From: Escherichia coli
GTDB lineage: Bacteria > Pseudomonadota > Gammaproteobacteria > Enterobacterales > Enterobacteriaceae
Assembly: GCF_003334385.1 (NCBI RefSeq)
Contig: NZ_QOWN01000007.1
Strand: one strand, 5' to 3'
Length of the DNA: 64,000 nt
Made by a program: the position numbers and the translations under genes. Positions 42,900 to 57,525 of the stretch are shown in pieces. The notes below the pieces were generated by a model. It was not told the origin of the DNA. It did not search any database and saw only the letters and a program-made list of their open reading frames with translations. Numbering within the stretch: the first letter of the stretch is position 1; each line of letters starts with the position of its first letter.

Positions 42900-45800
42900 A
42901 TGAGACACTTTATCTATCAGGACGAAAAATCACATAAATTCAGGGCAGTTGAGCAACAGGGAAACGAGTTGCATATCAGTTGGGGAAAAGTTGGCACCAA
43001 AGGGCAAAGCCAGATAAAAAGTTTTTCAGATGCTGCGGCAGCGGCAAAAGCGGAGCTTAAGCTGATTGCGGAGAAGGTGAAGAAGGGGTATGTGGAGCAA
43101 GCGAAGGATAATTCTTTGCAACCTTCCCAAACGGTAACGGGCTCTCTCAAGGTAGCGGACTTATCCACCATTATTCAGGAACAACCCTCTTTCGTAGCAG
43201 AAACCCGTGCGCCTGACAAAAATACAGATGCTGTTTTACCGTGGCTGGCGAAAGATATTGCTGTCGTTTTTCCGCCCGAAGTTGTACACACCACGTTAAG
43301 TCATCGCCGCTTTCCCGGAGTTCCTGTTCAGCAAGCAGACAAATTGCCCCAATTACGTCGCTTAGCCTGTAGTGTGTCGCAACGGGATAATAAAACAGCC
43401 ACATTTGACTTCAGCGCCTGTTCTTTAGAATGGCAAAACACCGTCGCCCAGGCGATCAGTCAGATCGACGGCCTGAAAACAACACAGTTACCATCACCAG
43501 TAATGGCTGTACTCACGGCACTTGAAATGAAATGCACAAGATATAAAGTGCGTGAGGATGTTATGGATCAGATCGTCCAGGAAGGCGGTCTGGAATATGC
43601 TACTGATGTAATAATACACCTTCAACAGATTGATATTGAATGGGATTATGCGAATAATGTCATTATTATTCTGCCGTCTGGCATTGCACCTAGCTACTTG
43701 GAGCAATATTCCAGATTTGAATGACGCCTACGTAAACATTTATCACTGACGGAAGAGTCTCTCTGGCAAAAATGTGCACAAAAACTTATTGCCGCAATTC
43801 CACATATTCCAGAATGGCGGCAACCATTAATTGCTTTGTTATTACCCGAAAAACCAGAAATTGCACATGAAATTGCCCAGCGTCTACTGGGGCAAAAAAA
43901 ATTACCCTCACTTGAGTGGTTAAAAATAGTGGCGACTGATGAGCACATTCTTGCCTCATTAGAAAAATATCACGAACCATATGCCATTTTTGATGATTAC
44001 TATTGTGGTGCGATATGGTCAGCCACCGTATTACAGGAGCAAGGTGTTGCAGCCCTGCCCCGATTTGCTCCCTATGCCGCAAGTGACTACTGCGCCGATG
44101 TGTTGCGTCATATCAATCATCCGTTCGCATTGACACTGCTTATACGTGTAGCCGGGCAAACTAAACGCTGTCACGATCGGATGACGAAAGCCATTGCTGC
44201 GTTCCCACATGCAGCAATGGCGGCACTGACGGAACTTCTTGGGCAAAAAGAAGAGAACAGTTGGCGCATTATGCTAATGACAATGCTTATCTCACAACCA
44301 GCACTGGCAGAACAGGTCATTCCCTGGCTCTCGACACCCGCAGTTGCCGTACTGAAATCATGCCAGCAACAACTGACACAGCCCTCAAACCATGCCAGCG
44401 CCGATCTACTGCCAGCCGTAGTAGTCTCCCCTCCCTGGCTTTCGAAAAAGAAAAAATCGCCGATTCCGGTGCTGGATTTAGCGCCATTAGGCATTGAGCC
44501 AATCTGTTATCTGACAGAAGAAATCAGTAATCAACTTTTGGCGAAATATATCTGGTATTCAAAACACATCACGGTTAGCCATGAAGAAAGTACTACCAAC
44601 CTGTTGGCAAGGATGGGTTTTCAACGACGGATCGCTGGTACATATATTAAAGCTCCCGAAGCGGTAGTTGAGGCATGGCTAAATGAAGATTATTCAACCT
44701 TACTAAGTGAATTTAAGGTGTTTCATTCACCTACCGGGCATTATTGGCAGTTGGGGATTTTGACAACATTGCCGCTGGAGAAAGCAGTAAAAGCATGGAA
44801 TGCCCTTACCCTATCTCCACATACCGATACCGAATACTCCATGTTACATTTTGGACTCAAAGGGTTACCTGGGTTAGTAAACTCACTTGCACGCTATCCA
44901 CAAGAAGCCTTGCCCATCACGAATTACTTCGCAGCGAGTGAGCTGGCTCCTGCCGTCGCCCGTGCCTTCAACAAACTGAAAACGCTACGCGAAAACGCCC
45001 GTAGCTGGCTGTTGAAATACCCGGAACATGCCCTTACCGGCCTGCTGCCTGCGGCGCTCGGCAAAGCCGGTGAAGCACAGGATAACGCCCGCGCTGCCTT
45101 GCGTATGCTTACCGAAAACGGTCATCAGCCATTACTGCAAGAAATCGCCCGACGTTATAACCAGCCGGAAGTAACCGATGCGGTGAACGCTCTGCTTGCG
45201 CTCGATCCCTTAGATAATCACCCGACAAAAATCCCCACTCTTCCGGCCTTTTATCAGCCATCGCTCTGGACGCGCCCGGTATTAAAAGCAAATGCCCAAT
45301 CACTGCCAGATAGCGCCCTCCTCCACCTCGGTGAAATGCTCCGCTTCCCTCAGGAAGAGGCTCTGTATCCGGGATTATTGCAGGTGAAAGACGTCTGTTC
45401 CGCCGACTCACTGGCGGGATTTGCCTGGGATCTGTTTACCGCCTGGCAGACCGCTGGCGCGCCGTCGAAAGAGAGTTGGGCGTTCACTGCGTTAGGCGTT
45501 CTCGGTAACGATGACACCGCCCGCAAACTGACGCCATTAATACGCGCCTGGCCTGGTGAATCCCAGCATAAACGCGCCACCGTTGGGTTGGATATTCTCG
45601 CTGCTATCGGTAGTGATATCGCCCTTATGCAGCTTAACGGCATCGCCCAGAAACTGAAATTCAAAGCATTACAGGAGCGGGCAAAAGAAAAAATTGCCGA
45701 CATTGCCGAGAGCCGCGAACTCACGGTGGCGGAGCTTGAAGATCGGTTAGCACCGGATCTCGGTCTGGATGATAACGGTTCGCTGCTGCTGGATTTTGGC

Positions 45801-55528: not shown

Positions 55529-57525
55529 ATTCACTACGTCCGGAATTATTAGAACTGACACCGCAGGCCCTGACGGCGTTAAGCAATGCCGGTTTTGTTA
55601 AGCGCAGTCTTAAGGAGCTGGAAAATGGCAACGTCCCGGAGATCAGCCATGAGAACGACGCTTTAATCGCCACCTTCAGTGACGGTGTCCGTACCCAGCT
55701 GGCGAACGGCCAGGCACTGAAAGAGGCTCAGTGCAGTTGCGGGGCCAACGGTATGTGCCGTCATCGCGTGATGCTGGTGTTAAGTTATCAACGACTTTGT
55801 GCCACCACTCAGTCTACGGAAAAAGAAGAAGAGTGGGATCCGGCAATCTGGCTGGAAGAACTGGCTACCCTTCCCGATGCTACCCGCAAACGCGCACAGG
55901 CGCTGGTCGCTAAAGGCATCACCATTGAGTTGTTCTGTGCGCCGGGTGAAATTCCCTCTGCCCGCTTACCGATGAGCGATGTGCGTTTTTATTCCCGCAG
56001 CAGTATTCGTTTCGCCCGTTGTGATTGTATTGAAGGCACACTTTGCGAACATGTCGTACTGGCGGTACAGGCCTTCGTCGAGGCCAAAGCGCAGCAAGCA
56101 GAATTTAACCATTTAATCTGGCAGATGCGCAGCGAACACGTCACATCATCTGACGATCCGTTTGCCAGCGAAGAAGGCAACGCGTGTCGTCAATATGTTC
56201 AGCAATTAAGCCAGACATTATGGCTTGGCGGCATCAGCCAGCCGCTCATCCATTACGAGGCAGCATTCAACCGCGCATTGCAGGCGGCAGAGACCTGCAA
56301 CTGGCGCTGGGTGAGTGAATCGCTACGGCAACTGCGCGCCAGCGTTGATGCCTTCCACGCCCGCGCCAGCCACTATAATGCCGGAGAATGCTTACATCAG
56401 CTTGCGGCATTAAACAGTCGATTAAATTGCGCACAAGAGATGGCCCGGCGCGACAGTATTGGTGAAGTTCCTCCTGTGCCGTGGCGCACGGTCGTTGGCT
56501 CTGGCATTGCCGGAGAAGCAAAGCTTGATCATCTGCGGCTGGTGTCTTTAGGTATGCGTTGCTGGCAGGATATTGAGCATTATGGTTTACGCATCTGGTT
56601 TACCGATCCCGACACCGGCAGTATTTTGCACCTTTCGCGCAGTTGGCCGCGAAGTGAACAGGAAAACTCACCGGCAGCTACGCGTCGGCTGTTTAGTTTT
56701 CAGGCTGGCGCACTGGCGGGCGGGCAAATTGTTTCACAAGCAGCAAAACGCAGTGCCGATGGCGAGCTGCTGTTAGCTACCCGCAACCGCTTAAGCAGCG
56801 TTGTGCCGCTGTCGCCTGATGCCTGGCAAATGTTGAGCGCGCCGTTACGCCAGCCGGGCATTGTGGCTTTGCGGGAATATTTACGCCAGCGTCCCCCCGC
56901 CTGCATACGGCCTCTTAATCAGGTCGATAACTTATTTATTCTGCCGGTCGCTGAGTGTATTTCGCTCGGTTGGGACAGCAGCCGCCAGACGCTGGATGCG
57001 CAGGTCATTAGCGGCGAAGGGGAAGATAATGTGCTGACGTTATCATTACCAGCCTCAGCCAGCGCACCTTATGCCGTTGAACGCATGGCGGCGCTTTTGC
57101 AACAAACAGACGACCCCGTGTGTCTGGTTTCTGGCTTTGTCAGTTTTGTTGAAGGGCAATTGACACTGGAACCACGGGTGATGATGACAAAAACCCGTGC
57201 CTGGGCGCTGGACGCAGAAACTACGCCTGTGGCACCGCTACCTTCTGCCAGCGTTTTGCCTGTGCCGTCTACTGCTCATCAGTTGCTGATACGCTGCCAG
57301 GCGTTACTTATTCAACTGCTCCATAACGGCTGGCGCTATCAGGAACAGAGTGCTATTGGTCAGGCAGAGTTGCTGGCGAATGACCTCACCGCGGTGGGTT
57401 TTTATCGGCTGGCACATGTGTTGGGACAATTTCGTAATACAGAAAGCGAGGCACGGGTAGAAGCAATGAATAACGGTGTTTTGCTTTGCGAACAATTATT
57501 CCCCATGCTTCAGCAACAAGGATGA
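55525..57525 (+). CDS. yehQ: SWIM zinc-finger protein YehQ
   Basis: ORF 55501..57525; start chosen at ATG 55525 overlapping the yehP stop (ATGA); two CxC-x5-CxH motifs (CSCGANGMCRH, CDCIEGTLCEH). Confidence 0.8.
   Translation: MNSLRPELLELTPQALTALSNAGFVKRSLKELENGNVPEISHENDALIATFSDGVRTQLANGQALKEAQCSCGANGMCRHRVMLVLSYQRLCATTQSTEKEEEWDPAIWLEELATLPDATRKRAQALVAKGITIELFCAPGEIPSARLPMSDVRFYSRSSIRFARCDCIEGTLCEHVVLAVQAFVEAKAQQAEFNHLIWQMRSEHVTSSDDPFASEEGNACRQYVQQLSQTLWLGGISQPLIHYEAAFNRALQAAETCNWRWVSESLRQLRASVDAFHARASHYNAGECLHQLAALNSRLNCAQEMARRDSIGEVPPVPWRTVVGSGIAGEAKLDHLRLVSLGMRCWQDIEHYGLRIWFTDPDTGSILHLSRSWPRSEQENSPAATRRLFSFQAGALAGGQIVSQAAKRSADGELLLATRNRLSSVVPLSPDAWQMLSAPLRQPGIVALREYLRQRPPACIRPLNQVDNLFILPVAECISLGWDSSRQTLDAQVISGEGEDNVLTLSLPASASAPYAVERMAALLQQTDDPVCLVSGFVSFVEGQLTLEPRVMMTKTRAWALDAETTPVAPLPSASVLPVPSTAHQLLIRCQALLIQLLHNGWRYQEQSAIGQAELLANDLTAVGFYRLAHVLGQFRNTESEARVEAMNNGVLLCEQLFPMLQQQG

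Follow-up and report, generated by a model that had tools for sequence, protein, structure and literature searches.

The Escherichia coli genes molR, yehI, yehK, yehL, yehM, yehP, and yehQ lie together at positions 42900-57525 of a 64,000-nucleotide (nt) stretch of contig NZ_QOWN01000007.1 (assembly GCF_003334385.1; the whole stretch is referred to below as the window). Five of the seven genes are a conserved cassette: WGR/DUF4132 (one to three copies), yehL, yehM, yehP, and yehQ. The domains, invariant motifs, and predicted promoters of this cassette suggest that it might encode a damage-induced, five-component MoxR-MIDAS remodeling machine with interchangeable adaptors, a reading to which we assign a probability of roughly 0.4, and which is weighed below against several alternatives.

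The cassette was delimited by co-inheritance. Among cluster representatives at 50% identity, 2252 are relatives of YehM, and a scan with each species represented by a single genome found relatives in at least 570 bacterial species. The E. coli proteins were compared by tblastn with 81 loci (80 fetched loci and one Serratia locus). YehL and YehM matched in all 81, YehP in 79 (two genes downstream of yehL), YehQ in 77, and a DUF4132 protein in 76; two of the missing YehP/YehQ cases are loci cut by contig ends. An earlier reading of the window, made from the sequence alone, had taken all seven genes as one conserved ensemble. Co-inheritance was found for YehL, YehM, YehP, YehQ, and at least one DUF4132 gene, which adjoin in the same order in 76-81 of the 81 loci, across four phyla, but not for YehK, which matched in none of them and hence lies outside the cassette. 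The same is true of the lipoprotein gene yehR, with one match in 81. The order DUF4132 (one to three genes)-yehL-yehM-yehP-yehQ is found in Enterobacterales, Betaproteobacteria, Xanthomonadales, Myxococcota, Acidobacteria, and many actinobacterial genera; Burkholderia is an exception, with the DUF4132 gene placed after yehQ. More distant metagenomic homologs (31-34% identical) have the same arrangement, judged from the Pfam annotation of their neighbors. Apart from genus-level synteny, the flanks of the 81 loci share no further protein family, and the cassette is therefore self-contained.

Among the 76 loci with DUF4132 genes, 43 have one copy, 14 have two, and 19 have at least three (as in some E. 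coli and Klebsiella); at least one copy bears a WGR domain in 50 of the 76. Divergent natural fusions of DUF5682 (the YehM family) to VWA_CoxE (the YehP family), of about 1180 residues, also exist, one of them confirmed in its genomic context, and support a physical YehM-YehP contact. Five apparent E. coli fusion proteins (P0001, P0003, P0010, P0013, and P0114) were set aside as probable assembly or gene-calling errors, being single-member and 92-100% identical. A search with the C-terminal third of YehI returned mainly fragments and short proteins; one DUF4132 orphan was confirmed, in Nocardia (region L090:10001-18694), where a gene for a 731-residue DUF4132 protein stands without YehLMPQ genes around it. 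Less than 7 kb away are two genes for SNF2/DEAD-type helicases, possibly a different partnership for DUF4132.

In the window, which is E. coli chromosome and 100% identical to strain SCU-104 with the same genes in the SCU-104 RefSeq annotation, the cluster lies between metG and yehR. All seven open reading frames reported by the sequence-only reading are present, on the + strand: molR (42900-46694), yehI (46704-50336), yehK (50397-50714), yehL (51021-52109), yehM (52120-54399), yehP (54392-55528), and yehQ (55525-57525). The tight coupling claimed for the last four is also there: yehL and yehM are separated by 10 nt, yehM and yehP overlap by 8 nt (ATGTCTGA), and yehP and yehQ overlap by 4 nt (ATGA). 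The claim of two tandem giant proteins needs amending. MolR and YehI are paralogous, and YehI is an intact protein of 1210 residues, but the molR frame of 1264 codons is interrupted in this strain by an in-frame TGA at codon 275 (43722-43724), and the annotation of the identical strain SCU-104 lists it as a pseudogene (“internal stop”). Only YehI can therefore be made here as a giant protein; the intact 1264-residue MolR is found in other E. coli. A 306-nt AT-rich spacer (50715-51020; GC about 0.43) separates yehK from yehL, with a terminator-like hairpin at 50884-50904, flanked on both sides by T- or A-runs, and promoter-like hexamers at 50792-50820. Since this spacer divides the genes, molR-yehI-yehK and yehLMPQ are probably two transcription units. 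The 105-codon yehK is a lineage-specific reading frame with no homolog in any related locus outside Escherichia, and its product has no match in Pfam, NCBIfam, or PADLOC.

The link to DNA damage comes from regulatory motifs. A LexA (SOS) box, CTGGATAAAATTACAG, occupies 42875-42890 (+), its 3′ end 9 nt before the molR ATG; it has the form CTG-N10-CAG, with 9 of the 10 spacer positions A or T. molR has been listed among the SOS genes with a “known SOS box” (reviewed in PMC6590174). In strains with three paralogs the box stands before the first DUF4132 gene (as a one-base variant in strain 131), and the genes are 9-12 nt apart.

High-GC loci, which are mainly actinobacterial, have a different motif. 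A conserved intergenic sequence in Lentzea loci matches RecA-NDp, the actinobacterial RecA-independent DNA-damage promoter, with consensus tTGTCRgtg-8nt-TAnnnT (PMC5656591); this motif is the target of PafBC (PMC6789036). Exact TTGTCR-N11-TAnnnT sequences number 27 in 1.64 Mb of loci, compared to 4.5 ± 2.2 (maximum 9) in shuffles. Half of the 44 high-GC loci (22) have the exact RecA-NDp consensus 8-103 nt upstream of a DUF4132 gene or yehL, in the orientation of the cassette (locus and position L042:4992, L049:5395, L052:5328, L053:5194, L055:4981, and L056:5500, with 16 further loci); the DUF4132 genes behind it encode proteins of about 1100-1300 residues. Several sites are at 8-9 nt spacing, typical of leaderless transcripts. 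These high-GC cassettes appear to stand behind predicted PafBC-type promoters. A GAAC-N4-GTTC sequence in Lentzea, which resembled actinobacterial LexA boxes, was rejected as lying inside coding sequence. A second conserved RecA-NDp-like site about 4-5 kb downstream of the Lentzea cassette (L042:19468, L053:19790, and L056:20073, minus strand) presumably drives another damage-inducible gene next to it. The mycobacterial PafBC literature, searched for SWIM, WGR, VWA, and MoxR, yielded nothing relevant, and MSMEG_5511, a “von Willebrand factor” protein that is lower in a pafBC mutant, could not be linked to the cassette.

DdrO operator sites are also present at two genes of Deinococcus radiodurans, those for the DUF4132 protein DRA0166 and for the WGR protein DR2173, and both proteins rise after mitomycin C in an IrrE-dependent manner (PMC8533742). 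With a LexA box, RecA-NDp motifs, and DdrO sites found in three phyla, it seems that three unrelated DNA-damage regulators (LexA, a PafBC-type regulator, and DdrO) control members of the gene set.

MolR and YehI are true paralogs, 38% identical across about 1190 residues, but YehI has no counterpart to the first approximately 109 residues of MolR, which hold its WGR domain. Pfam recognizes WGR (1.2e-17) and DUF4132 in intact MolR (allele L002:2990-6781) and DUF4132 in YehI. The WGR motif SWGKVGTKGQ is encoded at 42978-43007, and the assignment is supported by both profile and fold. A structure model was obtained for a full-length MolR homolog from Herbidospora (1163 residues; pLDDT 88.4), with three parts: a PARP-like WGR domain, a long HEAT/TOG-like solenoid, and a conserved C-terminal module. 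No enzyme fold was seen in it, so in this model the giants look like adaptors or sensors rather than catalysts. Across the DUF4132 giants the C-terminal third is conserved, and the N-terminal halves are divergent even within E. coli. The MolR C-terminus, IDAITASELINDIEALFE, contains an acidic helix, D-x-I-T-A-S-E-L-x-x-x-L-E, that is conserved from Proteobacteria to Actinobacteria in WGR-DUF4132 proteins, with S and E invariant; it might be what the YehP MIDAS binds, or else a recognition tag for the ATPase. The MolR WGR domain differs from those of PARP1/2/3 in its surroundings: no PARP catalytic or helical regulatory domain is present, and the HEAT solenoid and DUF4132 follow instead.

The four proteins encoded downstream would supply the rest of the machine. 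YehL matches Pfam AAA_5 (2.6e-34), with the Walker A sequence GEPGTAKS at residues 83-90 (51267-51290) and the Walker B-like VRFEEITR at residues 153-160 (51477-51500); both, together with the ATANTRDRGVNEMSAALKRRF block, are invariant in 81 YehL homologs. At the Walker B position all 81 have F-E-E in place of the usual hydrophobic-D-E, perhaps a peculiarity of the ATPase site in this family. The sequence-only reading had called YehL a MoxR-type ATPase. The P-loop AAA+ core and the nearby VWA gene agree with this, but the match to AAA_3, the profile for MoxR proper, is only E = 0.014, and that to bpMoxR only 2.4e-3, neither of them confident. The nearest relatives of YehL with solved structures are the AAA modules of midasin, with McrB weaker, and YehL is classed here as an AAA_5 ATPase of the MoxR/midasin/McrB class. 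NCBIfam gave weak matches to GvpN and cobaltochelatase-type models, those to GvpN, MadB, and McrB all being far below cut-offs.

YehP belongs to the Pfam family VWA_CoxE (3.2e-72) and has a complete MIDAS: DQSGS (residues 222-226; 55055-55069), GGGT (55223-55234), and the D of SDFYEG (55307-55324), with DQSGS, GGGT, and DF(Y/+)EG invariant in 79 homologs. Between the MIDAS Thr and Asp motifs, at 55250-55265, lies GTGGAGTATGGTCGGC, reported in yehP as a +1 ribosomal frameshift hotspot giving a YehP product 75 residues shorter (PMC2790909); the frameshifted product would lack the last MIDAS residue. YehQ has two SWIM zinc fingers, at residues 70-80 (55732-55764) and 166-176 (56020-56052), followed by about 480 further residues. 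C70, C72, C78, and H80 of the first are invariant in 26 homologs, although the Pfam SWIM profile itself matches poorly: the two YehQ motifs score E = 1.3e-3 and 0.21, respectively, and of the 26 homologs 1 falls at E ≤ 0.001 and 19 at E ≤ 0.1. GEPGTAKS, DQSGS, and the two CxC..CxH motifs are thus all present as the sequence-only reading had quoted them, and Pfam confirmed its domain assignments as WGR plus DUF4132, DUF4132, AAA_5, DUF5682, and VWA_CoxE, with only SWIM remaining weak. NCBIfam returned nothing above cut-offs for the cluster proteins, only generic sub-threshold matches. Sequence and profile searches of the PDB with YehM, YehQ, and YehI/MolR found nothing beyond WGR; judged by such matches, the only solved structures related to any component seem to be those that share a generic AAA or WGR domain with it.

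YehM, of 759 residues, has an N-terminal domain that the earlier reading had overlooked. The protein matches DUF5682 (3.1e-98) and no other Pfam model, those for TIKI, TraB, ChaN, and Ere included, and has no sequence match in the PDB. In the structure model, approximately residues 1-240 are predicted to adopt the parallel beta-sheet TIKI/TraB/ChaN/erythromycin-esterase fold; the structural matches are the set that defines the TIKI superfamily, with the heme-binding protein ChaN the best, and the C-terminal half is predicted to resemble HEAT/ARM repeats (e.g., TAF6, symplekin, and importins). Among 54 homologs, down to 28% identity, R10, H11, E35, H51, S81, E83, D101, E143, R175, E176, and H202 are invariant within the N-terminal 200 residues or so, and H12 and S13 nearly so; H11, H12, E35, H51, E83, E143, E176, and H202 sit at strand ends in the model. 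Active TIKI members hydrolyze peptide or ester bonds at a 2His/2Glu center (PMC6254334). The YehM motifs GIRHHSP (52141-52161), LIEGP (52216-52230), and CGGWH (52711-52725) fit the TIKI motifs in character and order (GIRHH, LIEGP, CGGWH). Judged by its motifs and the model, the N-terminal domain is probably a hydrolase, and would be the one likely catalytic domain besides the ATPase. Its fusion to a HEAT scaffold of approximately 500 residues, within a MoxR-VWA operon, sets it apart from other members of the TIKI/TraB/PrgY/ChaN/erythromycin-esterase superfamily.

From gene content, conservation, order, and coupling, together with domain folds and invariant and regulatory motifs, we infer a complex, roles for its subunits, a substrate, and a link to DNA. 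The YehL ring ATPase and the YehP MIDAS protein would form a midasin-like puller, mounted on the YehM scaffold with YehQ, in which the intact MIDAS would grip an acidic residue of a partner. Giants of the MolR/YehI type would be interchangeable adaptors or sensors, made on DNA damage; the conserved C-terminal DUF4132 module would dock them onto the YehL-YehM-YehP-YehQ core, and the PARP-like WGR domain would likely sense DNA breaks or ends. They might then bring a protein or nucleoprotein target at damaged DNA to the ATP-driven MIDAS puller, where it would be remodeled, extracted, and possibly cut by the predicted YehM hydrolase. Both the co-inheritance and the YehM-YehP fusions fit such a complex.

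Several known systems offer partial parallels. Rea1/midasin resembles the cassette in its motor: its AAA modules are the YehL relatives noted above, YehP supplies a complete MIDAS, and, by analogy, ATP-driven pulling through a contact between MIDAS and an acidic residue is a likely mode for the cassette. Unlike midasin, in which these parts lie on one chain of 4900 residues, the cassette has its ATPase and MIDAS on separate small proteins; it has no link to ribosome assembly, and YehM, YehQ, and WGR-DUF4132 have no midasin counterpart. CoxD-CoxE, NorQ-NorD, CbbQ-CbbO, and RavA-ViaA share the arrangement of an AAA+ gene near a VWA gene, with YehP in the CoxE VWA family, but the cassette differs from them in having no linked client, three extra conserved subunits, DNA-damage promoters, and an ATPase that scores strongly on AAA_5 rather than AAA_3. 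The MoxR-vWA ternary conflict systems (Kaur et al. 2020, PMC7159879) likewise combine a MoxR-class ATPase, a CoxE-like vWA protein, and large diversifying components; their defining third components (VMAP, iSTAND, beta-propeller) and effector domains are absent from the cassette. What would be new within the MoxR-VWA theme is the set of three accessory components not seen in described systems, combined with DNA-damage control.

A narrower version of the machine is conceivable, although quite unlikely: that it clears proteins trapped or crosslinked on damaged DNA, as an analog of SPRTN/Wss1 with p97/Cdc48. The WGR-DUF4132 adaptors would recognize a break or stalled complex, YehL-YehP would extract the protein, and the TIKI-fold hydrolase of YehM would cut the protein or a protein-DNA ester bond. 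The parallel is a DNA-sensing domain combined with an AAA+ motor and a hydrolase in a damage-linked system; it is a functional analogy only, and the components are not homologous.

Within E. coli the cluster is variable. yehLMPQ is present at ≥80% coverage in 5203 of 5426 complete genomes (96%; 16% of records below 95% identity) and molR in 4011 (43% of records below 95% identity), compared to 5425 for the control gene metG (3.6%). Strain NRZ104446 has yehL and yehM broken, strain 131 has yehK and yehP broken, and in KTa005 IS1 stands in place of the entire cluster; a blaCTX-M-15 transposon has been found inserted in the DUF4132 region in one major sublineage of ST131 (PMC9334617). The cluster genes are also named in the genome announcement of the viable reduced-genome strain DGF-298, and are presumably among those deleted from it. 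The system is dispensable, often damaged, yet widely retained. Some E. coli (L005:1501-12717 and L002:1-10426, one of them ST131-like) have three tandem DUF4132 genes, two with WGR, standing behind a LexA box. The N-terminal half of the molR-type gene is a mosaic between strains, 80-85% identical or unalignable.

A number of observations argue against the damage-induced remodeling machine. DNA-damage induction is also typical of prophage-linked and defense functions, and the tie to DNA repair is one that we infer. The LexA box is only on the adaptor operon: none is found upstream of yehL in the window. yehLMPQ instead appears to have its own H-NS-silenced promoter region, as H-NS binds in the intergenic region before yehL, and yehL and yehM are up-regulated in hns/stpA mutants (PMC3686432). 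No LexA-type boxes precede the cassette in Serratia, Erwinia, Thorsellia, or betaproteobacterial loci, and damage control is therefore not universal; none was found in Klebsiella, where the upstream end of the cassette falls outside the locus. The Deinococcus data concern DUF4132 and WGR proteins that need not work with a YehLMPQ module, and orphan DUF4132 genes exist. The TIKI fold can be non-catalytic, as in ChaN and PMT. Finally, the frequent pseudogenes and deletions, with the presumed absence from DGF-298, suggest that any role is dispensable in the laboratory.

The strongest alternative, still somewhat unlikely, is an undescribed anti-phage or anti-mobile-element system. The variable, multi-copy WGR-DUF4132 proteins would recognize the proteins or DNA ends of an invader, the MoxR-VWA pair would serve as a threshold switch, a role proposed for such pairs in other MoxR-vWA conflict systems, and the effector would be the YehM hydrolase. 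The layout suits such a system, with several genes, an NTPase, and tandem copies of a fast-diverging, sensor-like subunit; so do the frequent pseudogenes and deletions inside one species, the H-NS silencing, and the unrelated genomic contexts across genera, which point to horizontal transfer. Documented conflict systems have MoxR-vWA pairs at their core (PMC7159879), the toxins RRSP, PMT, and HopBA1 make use of the TIKI fold (PMC6254334), and damage-inducible expression would also make sense in a system that answers prophage induction. However, all seven proteins gave 0 families in PADLOC-DB v2.0.0 (E ≤ 0.01; systems up to 2023), and the 2020 survey of MoxR-vWA conflict systems names no YehL, WGR, MolR, SWIM, or TIKI (PMC7159879); the usual effectors are absent, and the bpMoxR match is weak. 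The sampled flanks, which the sequence-only reading had suggested comparing with defense islands, contain housekeeping and regulatory genes; no restriction, CRISPR, toxin, or other defense genes were seen in them (no enrichment statistic was computed), and no flanking family recurs above the genus level. There is 1 carrier in 2.9 million viral contigs, with YehM 100% identical to that of E. coli and probably host DNA, and in E. coli yehLMPQ is nearly core. That carrier is IMGVR_UViG_2562617057_000009 (L089), a 50-kb IMG/VR contig, probably host DNA attached to a neighboring prophage. Where the sequence-only reading had suggested a stress or defense machine, the LexA box at molR and the RecA-NDp motifs favor stress, while no positive evidence for defense was found.

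As a second alternative, the cassette might encode a maturation chaperone of the CoxD/CoxE, NorQ/NorD, or CbbQ/CbbO type, for metal or cofactor insertion or client re-activation; the ChaN-like domain of YehM would then bind metal or heme, perhaps fitting the old name “molybdate metabolism regulator.” The experimentally characterized MoxR-VWA pairs listed in PMC7159879 all act in assembly or metal insertion, YehP scores strongly in the CoxE VWA family, and the weak YehL matches to GvpN and cobaltochelatase-type models and the ChaN match of YehM point the same way. This is made improbable by the absence of a client: characterized pairs adjoin client genes, and none (cox, nor, and cbb included) is conserved beside the cassette in the 81 loci. 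WGR, SWIM, and HEAT adaptors of 1200 residues have no counterpart in maturation systems, it is difficult to see why a cofactor chaperone should have DNA-damage promoters, and the Deinococcus study saw no co-regulation with molybdenum-cofactor genes (PMC8533742). Least probable is that, in this strain and many other E. coli, the cluster is decaying and by now does little or nothing: the molR pseudogene, the breaks, IS1-mediated deletion, and resistance transposon of other strains, the H-NS silencing, and the presumed deletion in DGF-298 could be read in that way, but yehI, yehL, yehM, yehP, and yehQ are intact here with their catalytic and metal-site motifs preserved, yehLMPQ persists in 96% of complete E. 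coli genomes, and a single intact adaptor is the commonest state elsewhere (43 of 76 loci).

Two further observations concern the surroundings of the cluster. Another, perfect LexA box, CTGTACATAACCACAG, lies at 61564-61579, just upstream of a DinI-like gene (about 61584-61832) in an apparent prophage or island segment after btsS that also encodes a YadA-C-terminal-domain protein. By megablast, metG (40717-42759) has 219 matching places on plasmid records of the complete E. coli set, which is unexpected for a methionyl-tRNA synthetase gene.

As the sequence-only reading had supposed, the literature searched assigns no function to the ensemble, although matches to author initials and species names dominated the searches by gene name. 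Papers naming yehL and yehM together included none of a functional kind; searches by DUF5682, PF18934, and PF13569 found nothing, and the combination of MoxR, SWIM, and vWA found irrelevant papers only. For more than 20 years molR has counted as LexA-controlled without having a role, and yehLMPQ is among the remaining large E. coli unknowns. The analysis turns a vague “conserved unknown” into a concrete hypothesis, of one five-part cassette with a midasin-like motor and a likely hydrolase. If the cassette does act in defense, bacteria would have in it a chromosomal immune system of wide distribution, with an unusual effector. Should the DNA-damage reading be correct, the cassette would be a new ATP-driven machine for bacterial genome maintenance, and a new job for MoxR-VWA proteins; and if it clears crosslinked proteins in particular, this would be the first function for the SOS gene molR and for the YehL subfamily of MoxR ATPases.

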